From a virus (taxonomy: Duplodnaviria > Caudoviricetes): a stretch of DNA of 61,826 nucleotides. The stretch lies in IMG/VR virus record IMGVR_UViG_3300021957_000032, positions 1 to 61,826 of that record. One strand, 5' to 3'. How positions within the stretch are numbered: position 1 is the first letter of the stretch; each line of letters opens with the position of its first letter. The notes below the pieces were generated by a model. The model was given only the letters and a program-made list of their open reading frames with translations. It ran no database searches and was not told the origin of the DNA. Shown here one piece after another: positions 4,584-46,041 of the stretch. A program made the position numbers and the translations under genes.

Positions 4584-7500
4584 ATGGAAGAATTATATAA
4601 CAAACTTTTTGAAGCTGGTGAATATACTAAGTCATTTGATGAATTTGTACAACAATATGGAGATGCTGAAAAGTCAGAAAAGCTTTTTAAAGGATTAAGT
4701 CAAACAGGAGACTACACAAAATCTTTTGAAGAATTTAAGTCTCAATATGGATTCGCTGAAAAAAAAAACTCAAATTCCACTTCAGAAGAGGTCGTTACGG
4801 AATCCACTACAAATGTGGAAACAAATCCTTCCTCTTTGGATTCTTCGTCAACAACAACAAGCGTTGATATACCTTTAGTAGAAGAGCCTTTAGTTGACTT
4901 TCCTAATGCACCAGAAAGAAAGGGTGTGTTAGAAAATGAAGATGGTTCTGTTTCAACACATAAAATGAGAACAGAAACTGATGGCAAAGGCAATTGGTTT
5001 TCTTTTCCTACAATATTTCAAAATGAAGACGGAAGTTTTGTTGACATGTCTGAACAAGCAGAGTCAGATTGGGAGAGTGTATACGCAGAAGCTAAAAATA
5101 GAGGAGAAGTTATTGATTTTTCAAAAGATAAAGAATCAGCTATTAAATACGGTAAAGGAGCTTGGAAGCAAAAATACAATGCCAATAAAAAAAATAACTT
5201 ACTTGAAGAATCAGGGTATTTAGCATATGTAAATGATCCTGAAAGAAAAAAGTTTATGTCAATACTTGACACTTCCTCAGAACCTAACCCAAATGTATCT
5301 GATTACCTTAAGAAAAAATATGAAAAACAATACGGATTTGTTAATCCTGAAACAGGTAAAACAGAGTTTAAAAAAGAATCTGAGGTAAATCCAAGTTTAT
5401 TAGAAGCTATCAAAGAATATGACTCAATGGTTGGAGACATAAAAGCTCCTAACTATGTTGACGTTGAGATTGATGATGACGATTATAGTAAACTAGGAAA
5501 TAATGTAAAAAATATTCTTAGAAAACAAGAGATAGATGTAGAAGATTATTTAAAGTGGCAAAAGAAAAACACACGAAATGAAACGAGTGTTTATAAGTGG
5601 ATGAAAAAACTTTTACCAAATGAGGAAGGTGATCAATATTATGAAGAGAAAAATGCTTATGAAAAAGTACAATCTTATAAAGCAGCTCAGCTAAATCAAA
5701 TAGCAAAGAGATTGGGGAAAATCCAATCTACTATGAATTTGACATCAGACAGAAATGAATTAAGAAAACTTGAGAAAGAAGCAGATGAAGTTAGAAAAGA
5801 GTTTTATAGTAAAGTACAATCAGTTACTGAAACTATAAATGACTTCCCTAAATTCAAAGAATATACTGAAGATGCTGACTTAAGAAGAAGAAAAGCAATG
5901 TATCTTGCTGCTCAAGAAGGTGGTCTATCTGAAGGAGGTCAAGGAATGGTTGAATTGCTTTCTGTAACAGGTAACGGTCTTTCAGGATTTGCTACCGATA
6001 TTTTGGCAGGAGTACCTGCTTTTTTTGACCAAAGAATTGCCACTATGGGTGGAGACAATAAGTTTGATGGTAAAGGTGTATTAAAAGGTCTTGAAGAAAT
6101 GCTTACAAACTCTGCTGAAAGCTTAGAGGCATCAACAGGAGCTGTACAAAGACAGGCGTTTATAGAAGGTAAGCCTGTTTTTCAAGGAGGAAAAAGATAT
6201 ATTGTTGATGGTAATGGAACTGTATACGACCAAAACACAAACATAAGAATGGATGGTATTATTCCAAATGATACCATTAAAAAGATTGTAAGCTTATCCA
6301 AAGATGTAAAAGAAACCGAAGTCAATTGGACAGGAGGATCTGTGCTTCAAGGTGGTGTAAGTACACTTGTAAATTTATTTGCATTAATTAGAGCAGGTGG
6401 TAAAGTAAAAGGTACACTTGGGTTAAAAGGGCCTAAAGCAGGTGCATTAGGTATGGGTATTGCCTCATTTACTTCTAGTGTTGCTGGTAATGTTGAAGAT
6501 GTACGTTCTCAATTAGTAGCTTCAGGAATGACTGAAAAAGAAGCTTTAGATATTGCAGTTAATGCAGGTCAAGCAATAGCCACTCTTGATGGTATTTTCT
6601 CAGGATTAGCAGGAGGAAACGAAAAACTTCTTATAGGTTTCCAAGGAATTAAAGACCAAATAAAAAACTTAGCAGTAAAAAAAGGTAAAGACTTTACAGT
6701 TAAACAACTTGTAGACAAGGGTAAAGGATTGGTAAAAGAGAATGCTAAAGAGCTTTTTATTGAAGAGCTTCCAGTTTATTTTTCAGAAAAAGGAATAAAT
6801 CACTTAGTAAATAGACATATAGGAAATGATGTTTTAAATGATAAAATAACAAAAGCAGGGATTACAGAAACAGTCGTTATGACAGTAGGAGCTACTTCAA
6901 CTTTAGGCGCTAAGAAATTATTGTCAGGAAATAAGAGAGCGAATTTAGTAAGATTAGCTGCAGCAAATGTACAAGATTTACAAGCCACACTAGACGTCTT
7001 AGTAAAGGAGGGTTCTTTAACTGAAATAGAAGCTTCAAATGCTTACACAGAAATATACAATGCACAATCAGCTGAGTTAAAAACTCAAGGTACTGTTAAG
7101 ATGACTGAAAACATTGAGCCTGCTGCTGATTTATTAACAGAGAGACAAAACTTAATAAATAAAAAACAAGGCTTAGAAGGCCCTGGGAAACTAGACATTG
7201 ATAAACAAATAGCAGCTGTTGACCAACAGCTAGATGCACTATATGAAAAAGATAAAATAGAAGTTCAAGAACAATTAAAAAAAGAAAACGATGCCATTCA
7301 AGAGCCAAGCACAGAGAAGCAAGTGTTACAGGATGATGCAGGAAGCGAAACTGTTGGGAAAGAAACCGAAGTGGGACTGCCTGAAGTGGGAAAAGGAGAC
7401 ATTGAGTCAGAAACTACCCAACAGACTGAAACCGAAAGTGAAACGAAAACAGACCAAAATGTCGACACGACTACGAAGACAGATTCTGAACAGTTAACCA

Positions 7501-10500
7501 ATACCACTTCTGAGACAGAAGTGATGAGTGTGAACAAGGAAAGAGTAGACTCTATTGTCGATGGTATTGTTAAGAAAACAAAAAGCCGAAATGTAGGAGA
7601 AAGCACTAACCCTCAAAAAGTTGCAGACAACGCAATTGAATATATAAAAGGTTCTAAATTATTTGAACAGTCAAATGATATAGAAAGAGAAAATATAATT
7701 AGAGATGTTAGCAAACAACTAGGTGTAGAAATAAAACCTCCTACTGCAAAAAAATTATTAGGCATTAAAAGAATAGGTAAGCCTAAGACTATTAAAGTAA
7801 AAAGTGACTACGCAGCAATGAAGAAGGATCTTCAAAAAGAAGCGAAGATTGCTAGAGATGCTAAGAACGATGTAAACAGCAGAAGAAAAGGGTTACAGAA
7901 TGCTATAGATTTAGTTGTAAAAGCAGGTAACATTACTACTAAAAAAGCCAACACATTGCTGAAAAAAGTTTCTAATGTAAATCTCTATAACGCCAAGAAA
8001 GTTCAAGACGTAGTAGATTTTACTACAAGAGCAATGAATGATGCAGAGTATTCTAAAAAGTTAGATAAGGCAAAGTCAATTCAGAAAGCTATTAAGAAAA
8101 AGCTAAAAGGTAAAGAAGCAGGTTTATCTGATTCTGCTAAAAAGTTTAGTGAAGTTAATCCGAGTAATGTAGCTGATATTGATGTGTATTTAGAAAAGGC
8201 TAATGAAGTAAGCAAGGGATTACAACCAACTAGAAAACCATCTAAGGGAGAACTTAAAGTAAGTAAGCCTTTTGATATAAAGAAAATGGATGAGTATTCT
8301 AAAAAGGAAAAAGAATTAGAAGCAAAAAGAAACTATGAGCTTGCAAAAGAATCTTTCCAAGAACTAACAGGTCTAGAGCCAGGAGATTTAACTCTTGACG
8401 AAATGAAAAAGATGATGTATGAGGTAGATGGAAACGTAAAAACTGATGAAGCTAAAGAAAAGTTTGAAAAAGAAAAAGCTGCTACAATTGATAAAGCTGT
8501 AAAAAATGCATTTAAGAATACTAAAATAAATATAAAGGGTGCTATAGAGTCAGGGGATATAAAAGTTACCAAAGAACAAAAGACTTTGATTGACAAATTC
8601 CTAAACATGAATTTAGATTTAATGACTACTAAGCAAAAAATGGAAGCATTAGATTCAATTGTAAACTTTGAACTAAACCAATCGACAGGTGGAATGCAAG
8701 CTGCATTGAGTCAACAAGTTGGTAATCTCAATATGCAAAAATTAAAAAACAAAGGGATAAAGTCTAGTGAAAAAAGCACAAGCTTAGGTAGACTTTGGAA
8801 CAAATATATTTCAACATTGCCCAATGCATTTGAACTTGTTTTTGCATCACAACAAAAAGCTAGAGCTGTAATGGATGCTATGGGTCTTGATGGGATTATA
8901 AATGGTTCTGCAAAAGCTCAAACCGAAGGAGTTAATGTAGAAAATGAATACGCAAATTCTTTTGGTAAAAAGAAAATGAAAAGTGGAATTTATTTTGATT
9001 TACAAAATGATACTGAAAGAGGAATATTAGCAGAGGTTAGAAGAGTTACACCTGGGACAGAAACTGAACAACAAGCTGAGTTTGAAAAGAGTAAAAAACT
9101 AGTCAAAGATAGTTACGAAGCTTTATTAAATTCATCAGACAAAATAAAAATAAAAAAAGGAGAGGCTATAAAAGAACAATACGAAAAACTTTTAAAAGAC
9201 TCAAAAAATATTGCAGAGGTTGAAAGCAAAGCAGATCCTGTGAATCTTCAGGGTGTAGAATATGTAACTGATTTATGGGCTAAAAAATACCCTGAGCTTG
9301 CAGACGTTTCTTTAAATGTATATAACAGAAACTTAGGTAGTGATTTAAACTATACACCTAGAAATTTTCAAAAGTTAAAGGATGCAGAGGATACTAGAGA
9401 TATAACTGAACCTGTATTTAATCCAAGTGGCAATAAAGAAAATGCTTACGACAAAGAAACAGGTGTTTTAAAACCCACAACAAAACCAAATAAACTTCCA
9501 AAAAATAAAGTATTGAATTTAAGTTTTGATTCTCAGAACATGAATAACTATAAAGCTGCTTTAACAGATATTTATACAGCATCTTCAATACAGCAAGTAA
9601 AAGGAGCTAGACAATCTAAAGCTTTTAATGAAGTATTTACAAATGAAGGGTCTAAAGAAATTCTAAAAGACAGGGTAAATAATTATGTTGATTCAAAAAG
9701 AGGCAAGAACTATTTAGATAAGAGTCAAAAAAGATTTTTAAGAAGGCTAAATAAAGTAGCTACACTAGGTGTGTCTAGAGTTTTAGGTGGGCCTACTCAA
9801 ATGCTTAAGCAAGTTATTCCTATATTTAATACAGGAGTTAATGCAGGTTTGGTAAACACATTAGAGGGAACAAGGCTAATGTTCAACCCTGATGTTAGAA
9901 AAGCAATAAATAATTCAGGCCTACCTATTGCAAATCGAGGTATACAGTCTCAAGCAGACATTGAAAATGTAGATAGTAGAATTGGTAAAAAAGCTAATAC
10001 TAATACAGGTAAAGCTATTGATGTTGCTGATAAGATAAATAAAAAGACATTAGAGTATTTCTTAGTTGCTCCTGATGTTGCAACTGCCAAGGCTTCTTTT
10101 ATTGCTTATTATTTAAACGCAATGAATAAGAAAGGTGTTAAAACGAGCGAGATAGATTTTACAAAACCTCTTGATAAAGAAGCTGCACAATTTGCACAGC
10201 AACAAGTAGATAGACAGCAAAACACTTCTGACCAAGATTTACAAGGAGAATTATTTACTGACCAAAATGCAGGTAAACAAATTTTAAGGAAAACATTATT
10301 TCCATTTGCAAACTTCTTGTTAAATCAAAAAACAAGAATGTATTCAGACGTTAACACTTTATCTAGTAAGACTACTCTTCCAGGAGATAAAACTAGAGCT
10401 ATTAAATCTTTAGGTGGGTTAGCTGCTGAAACAGTAACTTTTAACGCTGTTGGATTAGGAATAACTCAAATGCTTAGTGCTTTAGCTAGAGAGGTTTCAG

Positions 10501-11213
10501 GAGAAGATGAAGACGATCCTAACTTAAGTAGGGCTAAAAACGTTAAGAAAAAAAGAGAAGCTGAAGAAAAACAAATGATGAGCAGAATAACAGGAAGAAT
10601 TGGAAACATGATTGCAGATGTAGCAGTTCCTGTTCCTATTTTAAATGACGAAACTTTAAATCAGATAAATGGTCTTATGAGTCTTTTTCAAGAAGGCGAT
10701 GATAATCCATTTCAGTTTTTTGCTAAAACAGAGAAAAAAATACTTGACCAGGCAGGTACTTTAGGAATTGGGCCAAAGAAAGCTATGATTCTTAAAGATA
10801 TGATAATGACAATTCAATCAGGTGAATATACTGGGTCATACGCAGGAAAGTCTTATAGTAAAAAATTAACTCCTGAAGCTATTGACAAGTTAACAACTAT
10901 AGCTGTTACTTATGCTATGCATTCAGTAGGTGTGCCTTTTATGAATATGAGTGAGGTAGGTTATGTTTCCGAAAGAGCTTTCAAGAATATAACTAAAATG
11001 ACCGAAAAGAAGAAGAGGTATGACATTGAAGCTGATGCGATTGAAAGACTTAATGATAGGCAAATAAAAAACCCTAGCAGTATTTTGATAGAACAAGAAA
11101 TGAAGAAAATTAGAAAAGAAAACAGAGGAGATAACTCACCTACAAAACGTGATGATAAAACTTTTAATCCTAGTGGTAAAGGAAGTGGTTCATTTACTCC
11201 GAAATCTTTTTAG
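4584..11213 (+). CDS. Giant putative internal virion (ejection) protein
   Basis: 2209 aa, last late gene; N-terminal YTKSF(D/E)EF repeats; C-terminal AQQQVDRQQ...LFPFANF region typical of large core proteins. Confidence 0.6.
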   Translation: MEELYNKLFEAGEYTKSFDEFVQQYGDAEKSEKLFKGLSQTGDYTKSFEEFKSQYGFAEKKNSNSTSEEVVTESTTNVETNPSSLDSSSTTTSVDIPLVEEPLVDFPNAPERKGVLENEDGSVSTHKMRTETDGKGNWFSFPTIFQNEDGSFVDMSEQAESDWESVYAEAKNRGEVIDFSKDKESAIKYGKGAWKQKYNANKKNNLLEESGYLAYVNDPERKKFMSILDTSSEPNPNVSDYLKKKYEKQYGFVNPETGKTEFKKESEVNPSLLEAIKEYDSMVGDIKAPNYVDVEIDDDDYSKLGNNVKNILRKQEIDVEDYLKWQKKNTRNETSVYKWMKKLLPNEEGDQYYEEKNAYEKVQSYKAAQLNQIAKRLGKIQSTMNLTSDRNELRKLEKEADEVRKEFYSKVQSVTETINDFPKFKEYTEDADLRRRKAMYLAAQEGGLSEGGQGMVELLSVTGNGLSGFATDILAGVPAFFDQRIATMGGDNKFDGKGVLKGLEEMLTNSAESLEASTGAVQRQAFIEGKPVFQGGKRYIVDGNGTVYDQNTNIRMDGIIPNDTIKKIVSLSKDVKETEVNWTGGSVLQGGVSTLVNLFALIRAGGKVKGTLGLKGPKAGALGMGIASFTSSVAGNVEDVRSQLVASGMTEKEALDIAVNAGQAIATLDGIFSGLAGGNEKLLIGFQGIKDQIKNLAVKKGKDFTVKQLVDKGKGLVKENAKELFIEELPVYFSEKGINHLVNRHIGNDVLNDKITKAGITETVVMTVGATSTLGAKKLLSGNKRANLVRLAAANVQDLQATLDVLVKEGSLTEIEASNAYTEIYNAQSAELKTQGTVKMTENIEPAADLLTERQNLINKKQGLEGPGKLDIDKQIAAVDQQLDALYEKDKIEVQEQLKKENDAIQEPSTEKQVLQDDAGSETVGKETEVGLPEVGKGDIESETTQQTETESETKTDQNVDTTTKTDSEQLTNTTSETEVMSVNKERVDSIVDGIVKKTKSRNVGESTNPQKVADNAIEYIKGSKLFEQSNDIERENIIRDVSKQLGVEIKPPTAKKLLGIKRIGKPKTIKVKSDYAAMKKDLQKEAKIARDAKNDVNSRRKGLQNAIDLVVKAGNITTKKANTLLKKVSNVNLYNAKKVQDVVDFTTRAMNDAEYSKKLDKAKSIQKAIKKKLKGKEAGLSDSAKKFSEVNPSNVADIDVYLEKANEVSKGLQPTRKPSKGELKVSKPFDIKKMDEYSKKEKELEAKRNYELAKESFQELTGLEPGDLTLDEMKKMMYEVDGNVKTDEAKEKFEKEKAATIDKAVKNAFKNTKINIKGAIESGDIKVTKEQKTLIDKFLNMNLDLMTTKQKMEALDSIVNFELNQSTGGMQAALSQQVGNLNMQKLKNKGIKSSEKSTSLGRLWNKYISTLPNAFELVFASQQKARAVMDAMGLDGIINGSAKAQTEGVNVENEYANSFGKKKMKSGIYFDLQNDTERGILAEVRRVTPGTETEQQAEFEKSKKLVKDSYEALLNSSDKIKIKKGEAIKEQYEKLLKDSKNIAEVESKADPVNLQGVEYVTDLWAKKYPELADVSLNVYNRNLGSDLNYTPRNFQKLKDAEDTRDITEPVFNPSGNKENAYDKETGVLKPTTKPNKLPKNKVLNLSFDSQNMNNYKAALTDIYTASSIQQVKGARQSKAFNEVFTNEGSKEILKDRVNNYVDSKRGKNYLDKSQKRFLRRLNKVATLGVSRVLGGPTQMLKQVIPIFNTGVNAGLVNTLEGTRLMFNPDVRKAINNSGLPIANRGIQSQADIENVDSRIGKKANTNTGKAIDVADKINKKTLEYFLVAPDVATAKASFIAYYLNAMNKKGVKTSEIDFTKPLDKEAAQFAQQQVDRQQNTSDQDLQGELFTDQNAGKQILRKTLFPFANFLLNQKTRMYSDVNTLSSKTTLPGDKTRAIKSLGGLAAETVTFNAVGLGITQMLSALAREVSGEDEDDPNLSRAKNVKKKREAEEKQMMSRITGRIGNMIADVAVPVPILNDETLNQINGLMSLFQEGDDNPFQFFAKTEKKILDQAGTLGIGPKKAMILKDMIMTIQSGEYTGSYAGKSYSKKLTPEAIDKLTTIAVTYAMHSVGVPFMNMSEVGYVSERAFKNITKMTEKKKRYDIEADAIERLNDRQIKNPSSILIEQEMKKIRKENRGDNSPTKRDDKTFNPSGKGSGSFTPKSF
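7291..7497 (+). CDS. Small basic protein (MPFKSQAQR-type) nested in the +1 frame of the giant gene
   Basis: 68-aa ORF MPFKSQAQRSKCY...KWEKET...KLPNRLK; A-rich upstream sequence; locally raised GC. Confidence 0.65.
   Translation: MPFKSQAQRSKCYRMMQEAKLLGKKPKWDCLKWEKETLSQKLPNRLKPKVKRKQTKMSTRLRRQILNS
7523..7536 (+). repeat. 14-bp motif GATGAGTGTGAACA, copy 1 of 5
   Basis: Exact match to the copies at 15702 (inverted), 19235, 24262 and 27515. Confidence 0.9.
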
Positions 11214-27625: not shown

Positions 27626-27817
27626 TTATTTGTTATTATTCTTTTCTTTTAAATCCATTATTGTTAGTGGCACGTATAATGCCAAGCACCCCACGAAAAA
27701 CATTAAGGCTGCGACAGATCTGTCCCCCTCTATTAAACTTTGATGTGCTGCTCTCCACGCATTCACGCAAACAAATATTGTGAATAGTGTAATGATTACT
27801 CTTTGTACTTTTTTCAT
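27626..27817 (-). CDS. Small two-helix membrane protein
   Basis: Likely start ATG 27817 (MKKVQRVII); two hydrophobic segments. Confidence 0.6.
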   Translation of the reverse strand: MKKVQRVIITLFTIFVCVNAWRAAHQSLIEGDRSVAALMFFVGCLALYVPLTIMDLKEKNNNK

Positions 27818-27821
27818 TTGA

Positions 27822-28034
27822 TTAGATTTTTTGTAGCTCTCTTGCGATTGCTCGTTCGACTCTTCTAAATTTGTAAATTCTTGTTGCCTCTGTCCAGGAA
27901 CACTGGACTTCGTGCATAATGTCTTTGACAACCTCTCCAAAGTTTTTATTAAATTGAATTTGTTTGTCTCTTTCTTCTTTTGCCACTTGTTCGATTACTA
28001 CAGTAACCGAGTTGGTTTTGATACGTTTTCTCAT
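27822..28034 (-). CDS. Basic hypothetical early protein
   Basis: 70 aa; first ORF after the long non-coding RNA region. Confidence 0.65.
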   Translation of the reverse strand: MRKRIKTNSVTVVIEQVAKEERDKQIQFNKNFGEVVKDIMHEVQCSWTEATRIYKFRRVERAIARELQKI

Positions 28035-28057
28035 TTGTAAATTATTAATTGATTAGA

Positions 28058-28102
28058 TGGCATGGAGGGATTCGAACCCTCAGCAGTCCTAACTACATGC
28101 CA
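28058..28102 (-). ncRNA. tRNA-like mini-element (acceptor stem plus T arm, no anticodon arm)
   Basis: TGGCATG-TAGTTAGGACTGCT-GAGGG-TTCGAAT-CCCTC-CATGCCA: 7-bp acceptor stem, 5-bp T stem, canonical T loop. Confidence 0.75.
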
Positions 28103-28595
28103 AACATATTACCTTGATACATTCCTGTCTTCCCAATATTGTATCTCTGTAATATCGTTTCTCTTTCGGTTTACAACACAGACTCTCCACTTGCTAGGTG
28201 TGTCTGTCTGTCCGTTCTAGTAATAACGAGAGGCAATTTTACGGCTCTCTACTATATCGAAATAATATAGTTCACTCTATGCTTTATAGGTAGTCTTGAT
28301 ACTTTACCCTTACATAGCCTCTACCTCATACAATTTGGTAGGTTATCAGTTATCTAAATACTTTAAGCCATAGGCGTTGCCATACGTGTACAAGGTGTTT
28401 TTGATAGTCTAGGCGTTGCCATAGATTACCCCTTGAGGTGCTTTGTATTACGTTGTAATTTTTTACGTGCCTGAATACTTGTTTTGAGTTTCATCTTGAG
28501 TTTAGTAAGGGCATAGATTACCCTTGTGTCGTATAGGTGCCGACTCTCTTTATCTACTAACTAACAATAGAATTGTTTCAAGTATCCAATATGTC
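28103..28595 (-). ncRNA. Candidate large structured ncRNA (~490 nt)
   Basis: No ORF of 60 aa or more; more than 12 helices found by eye; 5' GACATATTG pairs with 3' TAATATGTT. Confidence 0.6.
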
Positions 28596-28602
28596 AAAGA
28601 AC
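28587..28602 (-). promoter_or_regulatory. boxA-like antitermination element
   Basis: GTTCTTTGACATATTG resembles rRNA-operon boxA (E. coli TGCTCTTTAACA). Confidence 0.55.
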
Positions 28603-28626
28603 GAGATTAAAAAAACTTTTACGCTT

Positions 28627-28689
28627 GTACGCTTTGCGATACAAAAACATTTTTAAAATCCTACCTTTAAAACGTACGCTTTGCGATAC
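28627..28689 (-). repeat. Two copies of the bulged hairpin GTA-T-CGC-AAA-GCG-TAC
   Basis: Identical 16-mers at 28627-28642 and 28674-28689; related copies at 28371-28384 and 28410-28423. Confidence 0.85.
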
Positions 28690-28792
28690 GCTAAAGAGGT
28701 GCAATTTTATAGACTTTTTTTGTCTTTAGAACCCCCTCAAAATATGAGTTTTGCAACGCCCTAAAGACGTTTAAAGGGGGTTTTGGTGGTAA

Positions 28793-29281
28793 CTATGCTT
28801 TGACTAATTTAGCCGAAATAATAGCATTTAAAGAGGTCTCAAAATCCAAACCTTTTTCGATTTGTAGCTTTGTTATGCCTTGAATAAGTTGTTCAAATCT
28901 ATATACGTTAAAATTCCCTTTAATTAGTGTTACGGCTTCAGATAACAAAGGAATAAATTTAGCCTTGTTTTTTTCAGAGGTTAAAAAATTAATAGCTTTT
29001 TTGCACTCGTTTTGGTACGCAATATTTTTGTGCGATTTCGTGCTAACATTGTCAAGTTTTGCCGTTCTTTTTACCTCTAACAAGCAAAGCATCGCATCGG
29101 TTTTATATGCGTTCTTTTCGGTTTTTCTTCTAGCACTTTGCACGTTCGCAAATTGTGGGTTTAATGCACGTTTTTTAGCGATTGCCTCTTTTTGTGCGTT
29201 TGTCATTGGTTTACGTGTTACGACTTTTTTAGCCGTTGCGATTGTGTTAACTACTGAATTACTTTTAATTGAATTCTTCAT
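28793..29281 (-). CDS. First early gene: basic Lys/Ala-rich protein, candidate nucleic-acid binder
   Basis: 162 aa directly after the consensus promoter; N-terminal basic helix RKPMTNAQKEAIAKKRALN...SARRKTEK. Confidence 0.7.
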   Translation of the reverse strand: MKNSIKSNSVVNTIATAKKVVTRKPMTNAQKEAIAKKRALNPQFANVQSARRKTEKNAYKTDAMLCLLEVKRTAKLDNVSTKSHKNIAYQNECKKAINFLTSEKNKAKFIPLLSEAVTLIKGNFNVYRFEQLIQGITKLQIEKGLDFETSLNAIISAKLVKA

Positions 29282-29320
29282 AATAATAAAAATTTAAGTT
29301 GTTTGGCTTCATTGCCGTTA

Positions 29321-29352
29321 CAAATCTAAGGCTTTTTTATTTATTAGACAAA
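29321..29352 (-). promoter_or_regulatory. Consensus Bacteroidota housekeeping promoter (early)
   Basis: TTTG-20nt-TAGATTTG, followed by a small 5' hairpin GGC-AATGAA-GCC (29305-29316). Confidence 0.8.
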
Positions 29353-29640
29353 ATAAAAACAAAAATAAAACAAAATAAATTCTTGATCTTTTTAACTGAG
29401 CTTTTAAAATGAATAGTTAAATTGTTGATTATCAGCGTCTTAAGTCGTCAAAGTAATGCTGGAAATCGCAAAATAAAAATTCAAAATAATTTAAAAATAA
29501 ATTTATTCAATAGGTTTTTATTGTGTTTTGGTGTGTTTTTTTTGGTGGGTTTAGTATTAAAAAAGTTAAGCATTTTAAAAAATTAGGGCATTGTTAACCC
29601 TTTCTTTAGTATTGTGTAAAACAAAAACAAAGGGGGCAAA

Positions 29641-29729
29641 GGGTTTGTTTTGTGTGTGTGTGTGGGTGCGTGGCATGGCGTGGGGGCGTGGGGCGTGGGT
29701 GGTGGTGGTGGTGTGGGGGTGTGGGGTGT
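29641..29729 (+). repeat. G/T-rich low-complexity tract
   Basis: (TG)n, GGGGCGT and (GGT)n runs; a single A in 89 nt. Confidence 0.9.
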
Positions 29730-29872
29730 AGCAAAAAGCTAAAAAGATGCAACAATAAAAACGGCTTTTAAAAGTACCCCCCCTATCAAAAAAAAGATCG
29801 CCTTCCGATGAGGGATGATCGCTGTATTTTATATTATTACCCAGAGCCTCTTTATAAGTGATATTAATTTTG

Positions 29873-30540: not shown

Positions 30541-32106
30541 ATGAATCCAAAAGAATTATCCTTCGATCAAGAGGGGAGAGACAAATTATTAAACGGAATC
30601 ACTACAATTTCCAGAGCAGTTAAAAGTACATTAGGGCCACTCGGCAAAACAGTATTAATAGAATCACCAAACCACAGAGGAGGAATTACAATTACAAAAG
30701 ACGGTGTGACTGTAGCTAAATCAATTGACTTAGAAGACTCGGTAGAGAATCTAGCAATTACTATGATGAAGGAGGCTGCAGACCGAACAGCAACCTCAGC
30801 AGGAGACGGAACTACTACTGCGATTGTTTTAACTGAGGCTATTGTAAAGGAAGGAATGCGTTTGATTCAGAGAAACCCTGAGATAAATACCACACAATTA
30901 ATTAGAGACATCAAGTCTCATTCAGAGGAGGTAATAAAATCTTTAAGCAGTTCATCAAAAAAAGTAACTGGAAAAACATTACGTGATGTTGCTACAATAT
31001 CTGCGAACAACGATTCTGTTTTAGGAAAGATGATTGCTAGTGCGTACAAAGAGTTGGGTAAAGACGGAATACTTACAGTAGAAAATAGTAAGACTGAAAA
31101 AACATACTACGAGGTAACTAAAGGAATTAAGATTGACAGAGGATATTCTTCAAAGCTATTTATCAATAATCACAGAAACGATGAATGTATACTAGATGAT
31201 GTATATGTTTTGATGACGGACATGGAGATTACCAATATACTTCAGATTGAAAATATATTAAAGCCAATAATAAACCAAAACAAAAAACTTCTAGTGATTG
31301 GGAACTGTTCTCAAAATGTAACAAACACATTAGCAGCGAATGTAGTTCAGAATAATTTAAAGCTCTGTAATATTATACCACCATCGTTTGGTTACAAAAC
31401 AAATGAACTGATGAGTGATATTGCTTTGGCAATAGGTGCAAAATATTTTAGCGAGTCGCAGGGCGACAACATTGGGATGTTGACAATGGAAGATTTAGGA
31501 CATGCTGATAAAATTATTGTAGGAAAAGATGGAACTGTAATTATGAATGACGAAGTTCAAGATGCTAAGTCTAGAATTTCTGAGTTGAAAGTTCAGAAAG
31601 AAAACAATAAGGACAAGAAAGAAAGAGATTTCATTACCGAACGTATTGCATTGTTGTCAGGAGCTGTAGGCGTAATTTATGTTGGGGCTGATTCTGATAT
31701 TGAGCAGAAAGAAAAGTATGATCGTGTAGAAGATGCAGTATGTGCAGTAAAATCAGCGATTGAAGAAGGAATTCTTCCAGGAGGAGGGGTAGCTCTTTTG
31801 AGATGTGCAGAAAAACTAGGAGACGGAGACTCAAATGACGTTATGTACGGAGCTTTGATTTCACCACTAGAGCAGATACTTACAAATGCAGGTGAAAACA
31901 TAAAAGAAATTAGAGATAAAATTTGTAGTTGTGCAGATGCTCCACATAATTTTGGATATGACGTAAAAAATAAAGTTTTTGGCGACATGTACAAGATGGG
32001 AGTTATAGATCCTGCAAAAGTTACAAAGAATGCGTTGAAAAATGCAGTAAGTGTAGCGACAACAATATTAAGCACCAATGCAATTGTAACAATGAAAAGA
32101 AAATAA
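30541..32106 (+). CDS. groEL: Chaperonin GroEL (phage-encoded)
   Basis: TLGPLG, ITKDGVTVAK, GDGTTTA, GILPGGG, GVIDPAKV. Confidence 0.97.
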   Translation: MNPKELSFDQEGRDKLLNGITTISRAVKSTLGPLGKTVLIESPNHRGGITITKDGVTVAKSIDLEDSVENLAITMMKEAADRTATSAGDGTTTAIVLTEAIVKEGMRLIQRNPEINTTQLIRDIKSHSEEVIKSLSSSSKKVTGKTLRDVATISANNDSVLGKMIASAYKELGKDGILTVENSKTEKTYYEVTKGIKIDRGYSSKLFINNHRNDECILDDVYVLMTDMEITNILQIENILKPIINQNKKLLVIGNCSQNVTNTLAANVVQNNLKLCNIIPPSFGYKTNELMSDIALAIGAKYFSESQGDNIGMLTMEDLGHADKIIVGKDGTVIMNDEVQDAKSRISELKVQKENNKDKKERDFITERIALLSGAVGVIYVGADSDIEQKEKYDRVEDAVCAVKSAIEEGILPGGGVALLRCAEKLGDGDSNDVMYGALISPLEQILTNAGENIKEIRDKICSCADAPHNFGYDVKNKVFGDMYKMGVIDPAKVTKNALKNAVSVATTILSTNAIVTMKRK

Positions 32107-37340: not shown

Positions 37341-40300
37341 ATGGCAAAAATTAGCAATACTTTATCGTACCCTGGTCAATCACCGATTGAAGGGGCAGAT
37401 TATTTAATTGGAACAGCGGCTAACTCTACTCCAATTGGTCTTCAAACAAAAACATTTACAATACAAGGTATTGCTAATTTTATTATTGACGCAGCATTTG
37501 ATGGTGTGTCATACAGGCTTCCTATTTTTACTGCTGCAACAGCAGGATTGGAATCTGTAAAATTAGTAAATTCATTATTTTATCAAGATACGGCTTCGCT
37601 GGGTGGAAAAGTCAGCGAAGTCCTTGGTACAACCGTTTACTTAAATGACGGTTCAGGAGTTGGTAATTTAGAAGTTGCTCAAAAAGTAACTGTAGGAAGT
37701 AATTTAATAGTAACAGGTAATTCTGCTTTAGCAGGAACATTAACTGTAGGAGGAAACACAACATTAGGAACTGATGATACTACTGAAGCAAGCATTGAAT
37801 CAGTATTAAGTATTCAAGGGCCTGTAAAAGATTCTACAAGTACTTTAGGTAATTCTGAACAAGTTTTAGTTTCAGATGGAAACGGACAAGTAACTTGGCA
37901 AAACTTCCAAGGTTCAGGATTAGAATACCAATCAGCTTGGGATGCTTTAACAAATGTACCTGATTTACAGGTTTATCCATTAACTGCTGATAATACAGGT
38001 AAATATTGGGTAGTATCAGTTCCAGGAACAACTCCTTTAACAGATGCCGCAGGTGGAACAATTACAGATTGGGAGCCAGGTGATTGGGCAATTATCTCTG
38101 AAGATATTGCAGGAAATGTTTTTTGGGATAAAATTGACAACTCCTCTGTATTAACAGGGCAAGGTACAACAGGAAATATAGCAATATGGACAGCACCAAG
38201 AGAGCTTGGTGATGCACCAATAAAACTAGGAGCAGGAACTAATTCTTTAATCTTTAATGACGCATTTTCTTCAAATGGAGATTATGCTAATTCCTTTGGG
38301 TCTGATTCAAGTGCAACAGGAAATCAATCTTTTAGTGCAGGTTATGCTACTGATGCTCAAGGAGGAGCTTCACAAGCTTTTGGAAATCAAACTACAGCAA
38401 CTGGTGATTATTCATTTGCCGCAGGTTTTGAATCAACTGCAAATGGGACAGCTTCTGTTGCAATGGGAAGTAGCGCAACAGCAGATGGAAAATATTCTGC
38501 TGCATTGGGAGAGACAAGTATTTCAACAGGTGAAGCATCATTTGCAGCTGGTAAACAAGCGAAATCTACAGGAGATTATTCTGTAGCTTTTGGAGATTCA
38601 TCTGAATCAATAGGACAACATTCTTTTGCAGGAGGTAAAGATTCTATTGCTTCACAACAAGCTTCTTTTGCATTTGGAGAAAATTCATTTGCTCAAGGAC
38701 AAGCTTCAACATCTATAGGTACAGATCTTACTGCAAAAGGGAATAGCTCTATAGCTTTAGGTAAAGATAGTATTGCAGAACAAGATTTCTCAATAGTAAT
38801 AGGTTCAAGTAATGTTGCAGGTTCAGCAGGTAATGCAGGTGGAGTTGCAATAGGTTCAGGAAACAATGCATTAGGGGCTAGTTCAGTCGCTATAGGTGAT
38901 GGAAACAATGTTGCTGCAACTGCAATTGGTGCAGTTGTAATGGGAGCTTCAAGTATTGTAAGCGGAGAATTTTCTTTTGCTGTAGGTAAAGGTAATACAG
39001 TTGAATCTACTAGCGGTACAGGAATAGGTCGTGATAATGTAGTTAAAGCACCTGCAACAAATGGAATTGCTTTAGGTTATGAAAATCAGGTTGAAAAAGA
39101 AGGTGCAGTTGCGATAGGTACAGATAATGATGCTCTAGGAAAATGGAGTATTGCATTTGGATACAAGAACGGCTCTACAGCGGATTATAGTGTTGGAATA
39201 GGACAAGAAAACCAAGCTACAGGACTCAATGGTACTGCAATTGGTAAGTCAAACACAGCATCTTCTGCAGCAGCAGTAGCTTTAGGATTAGCAACTACAG
39301 CTTCAGGTAGTGCTTCAGTAGCATTAAACAATTCAACAGTTGCTTCAGGAGGTGATTCATTTGCTTCAGGATTTGAATCAACTGCAACAGGAGCTGCAGG
39401 AACAGCAATGGGATATAGAACTTCTGCATTAGGAGATTATGCTTTTGCAGCAGGTTATTTATCTAACACAAACGGAGATTCAGCTATTGCAATGGGTGAT
39501 AATGCAAAAGCAGATGCTAATAATACTGTAGCAATTGGAGCTGATATAGTAGTTGATTTAAAAAGAAGTGTTGGTATAGGAAACAACTTACTAGTTAAGG
39601 GAGATACTCAAGTAGTAATTGGAAATGGATTAGAAGGAACTTCTTTTAAAGAAACAGTATTAGGTTCATTTAATTTACCTCCAAGTAGTCCAAGTGTAAA
39701 TACTTGGGTTGGTACTGATGATTTATTTACTATCGGTAATGGACAAGATATTAATACTAAAAGTAATGCCTTAGTTTTAAATAAAAATGGTGAATTAAAA
39801 TTACCATCATATGGAGGTGGAACAATAACAGGAACTGCCACATATAATTTAGGTGTTGATGCAAGTGGTAACGTAATCGAAGTATCCACAGGTGGTGGAG
39901 GTGGAGGTACAGTTACAGGTTCTGGAACTCAAGACTACATTACTAAATGGAATAGCAATACAGCTGTTGGAAACAGTATAATGTTTGAAGGAGGGTCAGG
40001 AATTGGACTTGGAACGGTTACTCCATCATACGCTTTTGATAATCATTATAACTTAGGAAGATATGCTTCATTTGGAGTTGCATTTGCTGAAGCAGTACCA
40101 GCTAACAGCATTATAAATATTGGAGATGTAGATGGCAATGGAGCTGCTTTAGGTCTTTATGATGATGCTAGTGCTAGAACAGTTCTTGTAAAAGGTGGAA
40201 GTGTAAGAATAGGTACAGGTGCAGCAGCTGCTGAAAGATTAGAAGTAGAAGGAAGTATAAGGTTAAGTGGAACTGGCAGTCAAGATAATATTTATACTAC

Positions 40301-40601
40301 TAATGATAAATTACTTTTAAGCTCTGGTGGTAATAATGGCACTAGTTTCTTGTTTGATGATGCAAATGGTACAATCTTAACAGATACAAATGCTGAAGTT
40401 GGAATAGGAGTTGCAGTTCCATATGCAAAATTAGATGTAGCTGGTGCTATAAAAATCGCTGACACTAGCGCTTCACCAACTGCAAATACTGTTGGTTCAA
40501 TAAGATATAGAGTAAGTGGTAACAATAGTTATATAGATATGGTGATGCAAGATGGTGCTACTTCATATGCATGGGTAAATATAGTACAAAAGAACTGGTA
40601 A
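37341..40601 (+). CDS. Tail fibre or adhesin with YadA-head-like beta-roll repeats
   Basis: About 30 tandem 14-aa repeats (A.G..S.A.G) in aa 310-770; GIG...P...LDVAG fibre motifs. Confidence 0.8.
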   Translation: MAKISNTLSYPGQSPIEGADYLIGTAANSTPIGLQTKTFTIQGIANFIIDAAFDGVSYRLPIFTAATAGLESVKLVNSLFYQDTASLGGKVSEVLGTTVYLNDGSGVGNLEVAQKVTVGSNLIVTGNSALAGTLTVGGNTTLGTDDTTEASIESVLSIQGPVKDSTSTLGNSEQVLVSDGNGQVTWQNFQGSGLEYQSAWDALTNVPDLQVYPLTADNTGKYWVVSVPGTTPLTDAAGGTITDWEPGDWAIISEDIAGNVFWDKIDNSSVLTGQGTTGNIAIWTAPRELGDAPIKLGAGTNSLIFNDAFSSNGDYANSFGSDSSATGNQSFSAGYATDAQGGASQAFGNQTTATGDYSFAAGFESTANGTASVAMGSSATADGKYSAALGETSISTGEASFAAGKQAKSTGDYSVAFGDSSESIGQHSFAGGKDSIASQQASFAFGENSFAQGQASTSIGTDLTAKGNSSIALGKDSIAEQDFSIVIGSSNVAGSAGNAGGVAIGSGNNALGASSVAIGDGNNVAATAIGAVVMGASSIVSGEFSFAVGKGNTVESTSGTGIGRDNVVKAPATNGIALGYENQVEKEGAVAIGTDNDALGKWSIAFGYKNGSTADYSVGIGQENQATGLNGTAIGKSNTASSAAAVALGLATTASGSASVALNNSTVASGGDSFASGFESTATGAAGTAMGYRTSALGDYAFAAGYLSNTNGDSAIAMGDNAKADANNTVAIGADIVVDLKRSVGIGNNLLVKGDTQVVIGNGLEGTSFKETVLGSFNLPPSSPSVNTWVGTDDLFTIGNGQDINTKSNALVLNKNGELKLPSYGGGTITGTATYNLGVDASGNVIEVSTGGGGGGTVTGSGTQDYITKWNSNTAVGNSIMFEGGSGIGLGTVTPSYAFDNHYNLGRYASFGVAFAEAVPANSIINIGDVDGNGAALGLYDDASARTVLVKGGSVRIGTGAAAAERLEVEGSIRLSGTGSQDNIYTTNDKLLLSSGGNNGTSFLFDDANGTILTDTNAEVGIGVAVPYAKLDVAGAIKIADTSASPTANTVGSIRYRVSGNNSYIDMVMQDGATSYAWVNIVQKNW

Positions 40602-45250: not shown

Positions 45251-45481
45251 ATGGATATAAGAAAAATATCAGTCGGAGCAGACTATAAATCGAGTGCAAT
45301 GCACTATATTGTAAATCAAGAAATTTTAAATGCAAATTATATTATACATTTAATAAAATATGTATCTGAAAATGATTCAATAAAAATATGGATTGAAAAC
45401 AAACAAGGAGAAATATTTCTCTGGAAAGAGTTTAATTCAAATATGCCAATATCAATCGAATATAATATAAATTTTGAATGA
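45251..45481 (+). CDS. Hypothetical protein
   Basis: IRKISVG.DYK..AMHY...WKEFN.NMPISIEY. Confidence 0.7.
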   Translation: MDIRKISVGADYKSSAMHYIVNQEILNANYIIHLIKYVSENDSIKIWIENKQGEIFLWKEFNSNMPISIEYNINFE

Positions 45482-46041
45482 AATCACCTTTTTATTTCAT
45501 TGTAAAACCAAGCAATGACAAAAGGTATGATAATACTAAAAAGATTGGAAATGTTAATTTTATAACAAGCACATCAAAAGAAGATCATACCGTATCAAAT
45601 AGATATGCAATAGTTGTTGAAACACCAATAAACTATTCAGGCCCTATTAAAATAGGAGACACACTTTTAGTTCATCATAATGTTTTTAAATATTATAATG
45701 ACATGAAAGGAGTAGAGAGAAGTGGAAAGAGTTTTTTTAAAGATAATTTGTTTTTTATTGATTTCGATCAATTTTTTATGTTTAAAAGTAAAGACACTTG
45801 GTCATGCCACTCAAAATACTGCATGGTAAAACCTTTACCTAAAAAAAACAATTACCTTAAAACACATCAAGACGAAGAACCTTTAGCAGGTTTAATTAAA
45901 TATACTAATGATTCTTTAATAGAAAAAGGAGTTAATGTAGGTGATAAAGTTTATTTTCAACCTGATAGCGAATATGAGTATAATTTAGACGGTGAAAAAT
46001 TATACAGAATGTTTACTAATAACATAACAATGGTTTCATGA
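45478..46041 (+). CDS. Tandem GroES-like domain protein
   Basis: Two GroES-like halves: FIVKP...IKIGDTLLVHH and MVKP...VNVGDKVYF...DGEKLYRM. Confidence 0.55.
   Translation: MKSPFYFIVKPSNDKRYDNTKKIGNVNFITSTSKEDHTVSNRYAIVVETPINYSGPIKIGDTLLVHHNVFKYYNDMKGVERSGKSFFKDNLFFIDFDQFFMFKSKDTWSCHSKYCMVKPLPKKNNYLKTHQDEEPLAGLIKYTNDSLIEKGVNVGDKVYFQPDSEYEYNLDGEKLYRMFTNNITMVS

Follow-up and report, generated by a model that had tools for sequence, protein, structure and literature searches.

Four bulged hairpins with covarying stems in a predicted noncoding early RNA of a marine podophage, candidate operator-type sites for a phage protein

The DNA analysed here (in the following, the window) comprises 61,826 bases, i.e. 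a whole phage record, and represents the complete 61.8-kb genome of an uncultured podophage of marine Flavobacteriia type, a dsDNA phage that encodes capsid genes of its own. Near a switch of GC skew, the first early gene is separated from the remaining early genes by an ORF-free stretch of 758 nt, in which four short bulged hairpins (H1 to H4) are located (Table 1). The long hairpin next to the first gene has arms that co-vary in two related loci (L005 and L006). Neither the 162-aa product of the first gene nor the region 27800-29400 has a match among 50,697 phage records (tblastn and blastn), and no host or prophage copy was found in a genome collection of 185,579 species, where 0 of 27 candidates from an alignment of the 70-aa protein were confirmed. 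A 16-mer has six exact matches in IMG/VR, four of which (L008, L009, L010 and L012) are unrelated chance matches by blastn. The related loci fall into class A, with 34 distinct loci whose first gene is homologous to that for the 162-aa protein, and class B, with 19 loci that possess a different first gene (hhalign probability between the two first-gene families: 48.9%).

Table 1. Features of the early leader region, with positions in the window
Feature	Position	Strand	Basis and remarks
First early gene, 162 aa	28793..29281	-	ORF
Long hairpin directly 3' of the 162-aa ORF	28730..28782	-	Inverted repeat and fold; terminator-like, without U-tract
Span covered by RNA-library contigs	28113..28714		Four metatranscriptome studies; all four hairpins included
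Hairpin H1	28663..28700	-	Tip TA-T-CGC-AAA-GCG-TA 28688-28675; lower stem 28691-28672; outer stem ACCU/AGGU
Hairpin H2	28604..28661	-	Tip 28641-28628; core 28645-28624; tops a long A/U-rich stem
boxA-like word CGUUCUUUGACA	28592..28603	-	Sense pattern [CT]GTTC[TC]T
Hairpin H3	28403..28430	-	Tip 28423-28410; extended lower stem GGUA.UCUA / UAGA.UAUC
Hairpin H4	28369..28386	-	Tip 28384-28371; lower stem CGUA/UAUG
Conserved 3' core of the noncoding RNA	28103..28345	-	DNA identity; inverted repeat
tRNA-like minihelix	28057..28102	-	7-bp acceptor-like stem and T arm; without D or anticodon arm
Next early gene, 70 aa	27822..28034	-	ORF; in classes A and B alike, conserved downstream of the RNA

The hairpin tips consist of two words, TATCGCAAAGCGTA at 28688-28675 and 28641-28628, and TATGGCAACGCCTA at 28423-28410 and 28384-28371, all read on the minus strand. 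Each word can fold into two base pairs, followed by a bulged T and a G/C stem of 3 bp that closes a 3-nt loop, the bulge being a 5'-sided U in RNA and the loops AAA and AAC. The two sites of a pair lie 39-47 nt apart and are identical over 14-16 nt, and the lower stems differ among the four copies (AGCGTA/TACGTT, TTTGTA/TACAAG, TCTA/TAGA and CGTA/TATG). Pairing in the stems extends past the segment selected by the search. The degenerate 14-nt word TATSGCAAMGCSTA has four exact matches in the 61,826 bases, all of them here and on the minus strand, while 100 dinucleotide-preserving shuffles gave a mean of 0.00 and none that reached four; since the window is the whole phage record, this count is genome-wide. 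With up to two mismatches there are seven matches against 1.35 expected, and a looser descriptor (2 bp, T bulge, 3 bp, loop AAN(N), complement) picks up two unrelated sites besides the four hairpins, at 6741 (+) and 48581 (-). These results bear out a preliminary description of this DNA, which had placed four such words here on the minus strand, each with a bulged U, a 3-bp GC stem, an AAM loop and a lower stem of its own. The confinement of the hairpins to one place in the genome fits a role local to the RNA that carries them.

In the genome the exact word occurs only at the four sites. Among the relatives, hairpins of the same build (a covarying lower stem, a single 5' bulged U or A, 2-3 bp and a 3-6-nt loop) recur at the same four places in class A, while none recur in the 19 class-B loci. 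Loss of the structure at homologous loci would have spoken against the earlier proposal; instead, the structure is conserved there with covariation. At least two bulged hairpins with identical tips are present in 24 of the 34 class-A and 0 of the 19 class-B loci. A strict version of this count gives 21/34 and 0/19; for class A, the antisense strand yields 1/34 and a set of 20 shuffles 0-1 of 34. The number of bulged hairpins of any kind in a locus, a noisy measure, is 4.18 (sense), 2.26 (antisense) and 1.39 (shuffled) in class A, and 2.84, 2.79 and 0.96, respectively, in class B. The hairpins are restricted to loci with the 162-aa family.

The four hairpins are real, and their shape is conserved with covariation. 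In a MAFFT alignment of 14 sequences, made without regard to structure, 89.3% of the 540 cells are paired as against 22-42% with slid partners, 17 of 39 pairs have changed on both sides (500 shuffles average 9.4, and none attains 17), and the covariation score is 0.331 versus 0.168. H1, H2 and H3 were found unaided by RNAalifold. In the same alignment, H1 (helix 2) has 97.3% of its cells paired and three pairs changed on both sides, its outer helix including a pair that is CG in seven rows and UA in seven; H2 (helix 3) has 93.7% paired, with the upper pair 107-116 being GC in eight rows and CG in six; and H3 (helix 4) has 87.9% paired, with 8/11 pairs changed on both sides. The lower figure for H4 (helix 5), 70.1%, is due to the misregister of those rows whose loops have 4 nt. 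Furthermore, of 26 distinct hairpins, 23 have a Watson-Crick pair at lower position 4, 20 at position 5 and 18 at position 6, where base composition predicts 27%.

Within the subgroup of the window (14 sequences with four sites each) the bulge is a U in 55 of 56 hairpin slots, and the loops are A-rich and mostly of 3-4 nt, with AAA in 22 of the 56. The upper pairs, by contrast with this constancy of bulge and loop, interchange freely among GGC/GCC, CGC/GCG, AGC/GCT and GCC/GGC. The C-G/G-C swap between the two words, described from the window as compensatory, is thus matched in relatives: site 2 of L005 is TATGGCAAAGCCTA within an otherwise identical block and site 3 of L006 is TATGCCAAAGGCTA, while site 4 of L005 reads TTG-T-GGC-AACT-GCC-CAA. 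In another clade the 10-nt tip TGGTCAATCC occurs exactly at 34 sites in nine loci, within 11 different flank pairs, and not once on the other strand. The tips vary by clade (e.g. U-CGC-AAA-GCG, U-GG-UCAAU-CC and A-GG-CAAGA-CC) despite a nearly common 3' core. In L075 and L085, where the protein is 69% identical to that of the window, the tips are A/U-rich and unlike each other within one locus; if a protein of the 162-aa type binds there, it would read shape more than sequence. Judged from these alignments, sequence-free covarying stems that carry a conserved bulge and loop are the anatomy of a protein-recognition hairpin.

Identity of pair members over 14-16 nt is also what speaks for recent local duplications of short palindromic words without any function. 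Such an origin is scarcely credible, as the same four positions keep the same build with other sequence in clades where the identity of the first-gene protein is as low as 34-50%, and the flanks covary, so that the comparative data already contradict it. A CRISPR mini-array was rejected as well: the window, L005 and L006 share one and the same 'spacer' from H1 to H2, and the flanks of the repeats vary from copy to copy.

The hairpins are predicted to belong to a much larger conserved noncoding RNA of ~650 nt with a tRNA-like 3' element, which looks like a new phage RNA family. Rfam 15 (including GOLLD, ROOL, IMES and Flavo-1) has no match in the window at gathering scores, and within 27900-29000 and in 11 related loci only sub-threshold rows at chance level were obtained, except for tRNA at the minihelix; no published description was found in the literature searched, the search terms being broad. 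Other covarying helices are present in the noncoding stretch (e.g. columns 175-193, with four pair types). The 3' core terminates in an imperfect hairpin of 16 bp (arms 28155-28140 and 28121-28106) and has 85-100% DNA identity in 12 other class-A loci, in some of which the 162-aa homologue is only 34-37% identical. The minihelix reaches 28.5 bits with the Rfam tRNA model (gathering score 29; E 0.0014), and its copy in L120 30.4 bits. It has the acceptor stem stacked on the T arm and the UUCGAAU loop expected of a tRNA-like element, its T-loop word is present in 37 of the 53 loci and its stems covary; ARAGORN detects neither tRNA nor tmRNA, whether in the window or in 11 loci.

The boxA-like word (28603-28592, also given as CGTTCTTTGACA) follows H2 by 20-30 nt in the window, and 32 of the 34 class-A loci have a single copy of its pattern on the sense strand. 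It agrees at 9 of 12 positions with the boxA consensus of E. coli, given as UGCUCUUUAACA in an excerpt of PMC13753749. The arrangement of the preliminary description, with one pair of hairpins on each side of this word, applies to the window; in other subgroups of relatives the word precedes both pairs, standing before H1. A similar boxA-like word and the same minihelix are also present in class-B relatives, where these hairpins do not occur, so the rest of the RNA does not need them.

In an RNA of this kind the hairpins could be peripheral arms engaged in tertiary or intermolecular RNA-RNA contacts, as in ROOL and GOLLD, phage RNAs that self-assemble, with no dedicated protein. Their embedding in ~650 nt of conserved noncoding sequence among other covarying helices agrees with this, as do the 3' core, which is more conserved than the neighbouring protein, and the steady spacing of ~200-225 nt between the two pairs across clades. 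A conserved 3' part, a variable 5' part and an adjacent tRNA-like element in a phage are moreover GOLLD-like features (excerpt of PMC12286853). Nevertheless, we consider contacts between RNAs an unlikely, if serious, explanation: the loops are not self-complementary and no conserved complementary partner was found, class-B RNAs keep the core without the hairpins, and Rfam gives no match to ROOL or GOLLD. Above all, the tips are identical within one RNA and change in concert between clades, which is more typical of a single trans-acting reader. One candidate kissing contact, from a loop to 28760-28753, was rejected, being the sole 8-nt match and not kept in L049.

Contigs from RNA libraries of four metatranscriptome studies cover 28124-28663 (X19), 28166-28700 (X20), 28113-28714 (X21) and 28210-28592 (X22), although such contigs give neither strand nor true ends and may stem from DNA carry-over. 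Parts without cover are uninformative; this applies to the 162-aa ORF in X19, X20 and X22 and to the minihelix in all four runs. One contig bears the H3 variant of a relative, with the same build. Contigs of two studies end 11 and 22 nt short of the minihelix (at 28113 and 28124), a weak hint of cleavage by RNase P at its 5' side. The cover as a whole hints, again weakly, at a discrete, abundant RNA of 600 nt. The TTGACA at 28597-28592 was rejected as the -35 box of an RNA promoter, since contigs cross it and L021 does not have it.

These contigs also bear on the level at which the hairpins act. Extruded single-stranded DNA hairpins could be used by a virion RNA polymerase as N4-like promoters, or could act as a signal for replication or priming, and the stems of 5-7 bp and loops of 3 nt, lying in a podovirus early region, do resemble the early promoters of N4. 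Wobble counts do not favour RNA: the unselected lower pairs 4-6 have 5 G.U versus 4 A.C, which leaves the folding strand unindicated, and alignment A5 has 35 G.U versus 17 A.C cells but 6 versus 7 pairs. The region lies near the skew switch, and the 2209-aa ORF, whose function is unassigned, could hide a polymerase. No virion RNA polymerase was detected, however, and no evidence was found that the 2209-aa ORF is one. Besides, the RNA contigs include the hairpins and sequence 5' of H1 up to 28714, where a promoter hairpin would be expected upstream of the transcript; sites 39-47 nt apart make odd tandem promoters; and several G.U pairs of the minihelix work only on the RNA-sense (minus) strand. 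Signals at the DNA level are therefore very improbable.

A reader supplied by the host deserves somewhat more weight. The hairpins could be sites for a host factor or nuclease, used in leader processing, in protection from decay (sites of RNase III/E type, stabilisers) or in the recruitment of a host elongation factor. Indeed, the same leader has the boxA-like word, a site for host NusB/S10 if functional, and a tRNA-like element that resembles a substrate of RNase P, so that host enzymes probably act on the RNA anyway. Yet the tips differ sharply among clades that have nearly the same 3' core and presumably similar hosts, where a conserved host reader would fix them, and the contigs run unbroken through all four hairpins, lending no support to cleavage there. 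We regard host readers of the hairpins themselves as improbable.

The candidate reader encoded by the phage is the 162-aa protein, which is very basic (25 K and 6 R versus 3 D and 9 E) and is predicted to be folded and all-helical, with eight helices (AF2 pLDDT 78.8, pTM 0.63), the two N-terminal ones being basic in the model. It has no match in Pfam, PHROG, NCBIfam or PDB sequences and no recognised RNA-binding domain. Foldseek returned nothing at E <= 0.001 with the model, and the best VIA Z score, 5.4, is to AAA+ lid bundles, i.e. no convincing structural relative. The family comprises 193 clusters at 90% identity (46 at 50%), exclusively from metagenomes, and is widespread in phages of marine Flavobacteriia, occurring in TARA and many other marine data sets. 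One distant homologue has a HeH/LEM nucleic-acid-binding domain at its N terminus. The co-occurrence of hairpins and protein, and their parallel divergence, may reflect linkage and common descent of neighbouring modules and not interaction.

Weighing these observations, we tentatively prefer to see in the four hairpins RNA sites of operator type that a phage protein, most probably that of 162 aa, would recognise, a reading whose probability we put a little short of even. The four words would be the tips of hairpins in an untranslated leader after the first early gene, and the very basic product of the gene just upstream would read bulge and loop, the two tandem pairs loading several protein copies on the RNA's 5' half. 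Binding by a protein, the choice of the 162-aa product as that protein, and the effects of binding are points that we infer; the consequence judged most likely is the formation of a ribonucleoprotein on the early leader. Such a complex might act in a nut-like manner, carrying RNA polymerase, with the help of the adjacent boxA-like word, across an untranslated stretch of ~650 nt and on into the other early genes. Alternatively, it might stabilise a processed RNA with a role of its own. A bolder extension, which we hold to be doubtful, is a new phage ribonucleoprotein in which an ornate early RNA of ~650 nt, its four hairpins clamped by a new all-helical RNA-binding family, would obtain its 3' end from RNase P at the minihelix in the style of MALAT1/mascRNA, and would act in trans on the host (take-over or counter-defence) and not only in cis on its own operon.

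Among known systems, the operators of RNA-phage coat proteins (MS2, Qbeta and PP7) are stem-loops in which 2-4 bp separate one bulged nucleotide on the 5' side from a loop of 3-6 nt; the stem is free if paired, and identity resides in bulge and loop. The Qbeta type has 3 bp and a 3-nt loop and the MS2 type the order bulge-GG-loop-CC; the operator overlaps the start codon of the replicase and is read by a coat dimer of Levivirus type. The present hairpins share this arrangement of bulge, stem and loop, and their two commonest builds match the Qbeta and MS2 types. They differ in a bulge that is U, or A in some clades, in their four copies, in being part of a noncoding RNA of a dsDNA phage, in lying in an ORF-free stretch where they overlap no start codon, and in a candidate reader that is an all-helical basic protein without a coat-protein fold. 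If the 162-aa protein binds, it would represent a new RNA-binding fold and a compact new pair of hairpin and protein. In the nut site of lambda, boxA lies a few nucleotides 5' of boxB, a short stem with a 5-nt GNRA-like loop (GAAAA or GAAGA) that is read by N, a protein with an arginine-rich motif. Similarly, the present hairpins are found early in an early operon, adjoin the gene for a small basic phage protein, have A-rich loops and an adjacent boxA-like word, and precede a long downstream operon dependent on read-through. Unlike in lambda, there are four hairpins instead of one and no 5-nt GNRA-like loop, and the boxA-like word is 3' of H2, variable in position among relatives and also present without hairpins; the 162-aa protein, predicted to be folded, has no similarity to N and is in no Pfam, PHROG or NCBIfam family. 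A nut-like module would be, to our knowledge and in a limited literature search, the first N-type antitermination module described for phages of Bacteroidota. The reading of the preliminary description is thus partly supported, in that a conserved bulge and loop sit on sequence-free covarying stems, while membership in boxB/N or MS2 operator/coat fails on loop type, protein fold and position, which leaves its comparison with boxB and the MS2 operator an analogy.

Other systems resemble single traits. The early promoters of coliphage N4 are hairpins with a 5-7-bp stem and a 3-nt loop, located upstream of the start and used by the virion RNA polymerase; the shape seen here is compatible with them, but the polymerase was not detected and the RNA contigs contain the hairpins. 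Phage RNAs processed by RNase P are represented by CI of P4 and C4 of P1. In MALAT1/mascRNA, according to an excerpt of PMC8457004, RNase P cuts a tRNA-like element at the 3' end, and here, too, a tRNA-like element lies 3' of a long noncoding RNA, although this likeness concerns the neighbouring minihelix and not the four hairpins. Antitermination by ANTAR proteins involves tandem dual hairpins with hexaloops and a helical RNA-binding domain (excerpts of PMC8934654 and PMC3369931). The tandem pairs with conserved loops and the helical candidate reader are similar, and the ANTAR proteins EutV, AmiR and Rv1626 are among the 50 best VIA rows, at Z 3.3-3.7, which is the chance range for helical proteins; the present loops, however, have 3-5 nt, no terminator overlaps the second hairpin, and Pfam finds no ANTAR domain in 29 of 29 scanned members of the 162-aa family. 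Finally, GOLLD and ROOL are large structured phage RNAs of unknown function near a tRNA or tRNA-like element, GOLLD having a conserved 3' and a variable 5' part (excerpt of PMC12286853). The RNA described here is likewise phage-encoded, large and apparently structured, with an adjacent tRNA-like element, a conserved 3' and a variable 5' part, but it is shorter, is always preceded by the gene for a small basic protein and has repeated operator-like hairpins. Large phage RNAs of the GOLLD/ROOL type are poorly understood mainly for want of a known partner or phenotype, whereas this RNA brings its own hypothesis in the form of operator-like hairpins, an adjacent lineage-specific basic protein, a boxA-like word and a tRNA-like end.

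On the minus strand of the window, TATCGCAAAGCGTA occurs at two sites (H1 and H2) and TATGGCAACGCCTA at two further ones (H3 and H4), and each of the four words stands on a lower stem of its own. The preliminary description, which had reported these four bulged hairpins with their positions, strand and unlike lower stems, is borne out as written. A search with the degenerate hairpin word returned exactly four matches, all on the minus strand and all at H1-H4, against 0.00 expected from 100 dinucleotide-preserving shuffles; since the window is a complete virus record (61,826 bases, completeness 100), this count is genome-wide. The words start 47 nt apart in the first pair and 39 nt apart in the second, with 218 nt between the pairs, and all lie in a noncoding stretch of 758 nt without any minus-strand ORF of more than 36 codons.

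Features of the hairpin region and of other parts of the window
Feature	Position	Strand	Remarks
2209-aa ORF	4584-11213	+	in virion gene block
70-aa gene	27822-28034	-	borders hairpin stretch downstream
Hairpin stretch	28792-28035	-	
tRNA-like minihelix	28102-28057	-	end of noncoding stretch; acceptor stem and T arm, no D or anticodon arm
H4 tip	28384-28371	-	TATGGCAACGCCTA
H3 tip	28423-28410	-	TATGGCAACGCCTA
boxA-like word	28592-28603	-	CGUUCUUUGACA; after H2
H2 tip	28641-28628	-	TATCGCAAAGCGTA
H1 tip	28688-28675	-	TATCGCAAAGCGTA
Long strong hairpin	28782-28730	-	directly after 162-aa ORF; arms covary between relatives, no U-tract
162-aa gene	28793-29281	-	first gene of minus-strand block; borders hairpin stretch upstream
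Three tandem TATTTTG-like boxes	29343-29380	-	exact TAnnTTTG at 29367-29360
C/A-rich tract	~29641-29730	-	short repeats (CACC, CACGCCCC, CACACA); upstream of early promoter region
GroEL (Cpn60)	30541-32106	+	E 1.4e-57
1086-aa protein	37341-40601	+	YadA-head repeats (PF05658, E 5.4e-33)
GroES-like co-chaperonin	45478-46041	+	phrog_13932

The terminase of this phage is closest to those of Flavobacterium, Cellulophaga, Tenacibaculum and Maribacter podophages (87 matching records), the best match being a 60.8-kb uncultured phage with 68% identity. Replication and recombination genes occupy the minus strand from about 11.3 to 29.3 kb; from 30 kb onward the plus strand carries the lysis, tail, terminase, portal and capsid genes. 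The phage also encodes its own GroEL and GroES-like proteins; the 2209-aa ORF belongs to no Pfam or PHROG family, and tblastn against 50,697 phage records gave no match for it. The 1086-aa protein is a probable tail fibre or adhesin.

An exact TAnnTTTG, the consensus of the Bacteroidetes-type -7 box, lies upstream of the 162-aa gene, and none was found directly before the noncoding stretch, so that the latter is probably transcribed with the early operon. The exact box is one of three tandem boxes following the C/A-rich tract, and tract and boxes together may represent an early promoter cluster or else a genome-end or origin feature. Metatranscriptome contigs from four runs of four studies match 28124-28663, 28166-28700, 28113-28714 and 28210-28592; all four hairpins are contained in such contigs, which carry neither strand nor true ends and may include DNA carry-over. 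One of them holds a relative's H3 variant, U-GC-AAAA-GC, with the build kept. The contig ends at 28113 and 28124, in two studies, fall just before the tRNA-like element and give a weak hint of an RNA 3' end.

Relatives were collected from IMG/VR and metagenome contigs with the 162-aa protein, the GroEL of the phage and a 70-aa protein alignment as queries. A first gene could be recognised in 59 of 77 oriented upstream sequences, and removal of 6 duplicates left 53 distinct loci; as many of these are closely related, all counts refer to sequences and not to independent events. The first gene is a homologue of the 162-aa protein in 34 of the 53 (class A) and another basic protein, 133-147 aa long, in 19 (class B). 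When the two sets of first-gene proteins were compared for homology, hhalign gave a probability of 48.9%. Relatives of the class-B type (L033, L055-L060, L068, L070, L073, L077, L089, L091, L097, L098, L100, L101, L107, L114, L117, L122) possess another 5' RNA module, without repeated bulged hairpins, and keep the minihelix and the 70-aa gene.

The 162-aa protein is very basic. Pfam, PHROGs and NCBIfam contain no family for it and the PDB no sequence relative; it belongs to a small, purely metagenomic family (193 clusters at 90% identity, 46 at 50%). Its AlphaFold2 model (29 homologues; pLDDT 78.8, pTM 0.63) is all-helical, with two basic N-terminal helices and a better defined C-terminal bundle. 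Foldseek found no match to this model at E <= 0.001, and the best VIA Z (5.4, AAA+ lid bundles) is a value that helical proteins reach by chance; among the VIA matches, three ANTAR antiterminators (Z 3.3-3.7) are a lead only. An N-terminal HeH/LEM domain (PF12949, 43 bits, cut-off 28.9), fused to the family domain in one of 22 distant homologues scanned (P0125), hints at nucleic-acid association. The homologue at locus L029 carries an N-terminal extension of about 40 residues.

The hairpin structure is kept in homologous loci, with covarying flanks, across clades. Compensatory changes within otherwise identical blocks appear already among the three closest sequences. In a MAFFT alignment of 14 sequences from the window's subgroup, RNAalifold predicted 67 pairs, 25 of them changed on both sides, including H1, the top of H2 and the lower stem of H3. 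Our four-hairpin structure is paired in 89.3% of 540 cells of this alignment, against 22-42% with slid partners; 17 of its 39 pairs show both-side changes, a number reached in none of 500 shuffles, and it has a covariation score of 0.331 against 0.168. The lower value for H4 (70.1%) comes from register shifts in rows whose loops have 4 nt, and after realignment the bulged hairpin is present in all 14 rows. Within this subgroup the bulged U occupies 55 of 56 slots, loops are A-rich and upper pairs are freely swapped. At the same four positions, more distant clades possess hairpins that share the build but differ in sequence: 9 loci together have 34 exact copies of the tip U-GG-UCAAU-CC, on 11 different flank pairs and never on the other strand, and further tips are A-GG-CAAGA/U-CC, A-GG-CUAGA-CC, U-AG-CAUUGU-CU and A/U-rich ones in two loci (L075 and L085). 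Among 26 distinct hairpins, selected on three lower pairs only, lower pairs 4, 5 and 6 are Watson-Crick in 23, 20 and 18, respectively, against 27% expected. Stems thus need only pair, while bulge and loop (or, in one clade, all 10 nt of the tip) are conserved, which is the anatomy of a recognition hairpin; that such hairpins are a functionless duplication is scarcely credible.

Flanks that vary but remain complementary speak for a hairpin formed by a single strand of nucleic acid and against an operator read as a duplex. As to which strand folds, wobble counts favour neither, with 5 G.U against 4 A.C among unselected lower pairs and, on A5, 35 G.U against 17 A.C cells, but 6 against 7 pairs. 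We favour RNA because of the orientation within the early operon, the bulge consistently on the 5' side of the sense strand, the neighbouring minihelix and the RNA-library contigs, and regard single-stranded DNA signals as very unlikely.

The minihelix scores 28.5 bits on the Rfam tRNA model (gathering score 29) and its copy in locus L120 30.4 bits; its stems covary, with G.U pairs workable on the sense strand only, and its T-loop word recurs in both classes (37 of 53 loci). Further copies occur in L050, L080, L099 and others, with an extra 18-nt hairpin inserted in L050/L005. It may serve as an RNase P processing signal, and the long hairpin behind the 162-aa ORF may act as a partial terminator or processing site, or stabilise the RNA at its 5' end. 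Twelve other class-A loci share the 3' 240 nt at 85-100% identity, some of them with a protein only 34-37% identical, and other loci carry a different 3' module; the RNA is therefore a mosaic. A single sense-strand copy of [CT]GTTC[TC]T is present in 32 of 34 class-A loci. The flanking of this boxA-like word by two hairpin pairs, as first proposed, holds in the window's subgroup, where it follows H2, but not in others, where it precedes H1. By our comparison with the consensus sequences given in PMC13753749, the window's word equals E. coli UGCUCUUUAACA at 9 of 12 and B. subtilis AUGAUCUUUGAAA at 9 of 13 positions. Similar words (GTTCCTTGAC, GCTCCTTGAC), some repeated, are present in class-B relatives.

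Identical-tip hairpins clearly go with the 162-aa protein family: 24 of 34 class-A loci contain at least two, against none of 19 class-B loci. Strict Watson-Crick criteria leave 21/34 against 0/19, with 1/34 on the antisense strand and 0-1/34 in 20 shuffles, and the 10 class-A loci without identical tips have bulged hairpins with unlike tips at the same places. Gene and RNA are adjacent, so linkage alone could yield this association. From hairpins that exist, are conserved and accompany this family, we tentatively infer operator-type sites at which an RNA-binding protein of the phage, most likely the 162-aa protein, would bind. A purely architectural role within the RNA seems rather unlikely, and sites for a host factor or nuclease improbable. 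As operator-type sites, the hairpins would load several protein copies onto the 5' half of the early leader. Two consequences appear about equally likely: a nut-like complex with the boxA-like word could take RNA polymerase across the long untranslated RNA to the rest of the early genes, or a stable ribonucleoprotein could form with a role of its own.

Rfam 15, Pfam, PHROGs, NCBIfam and, in a few broad searches, the literature yielded no account of either the RNA or the protein family; Rfam models, including those of GOLLD and ROOL, gave no match to the whole RNA, and blastn of the region and tblastn of the 162-aa protein against 50,697 phage records found no cultured phage with the hairpin RNA element. 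Membership among RNA-phage coat-protein operators, lambda nut sites or ANTAR targets fails in each case on loop type, protein family or start-codon/terminator overlap. The initial analogy with boxB and the MS2 operator accordingly stands as likeness and not as membership: the four hairpins resemble coat-protein operators in build and nut sites in position and company, and ANTAR targets in pairing-up. The whole RNA is like GOLLD and ROOL, as characterised in PMC12286853, in lifestyle only, being a large phage-encoded RNA beside a tRNA-like element, and like them it combines a conserved 3' part with a variable 5' part.
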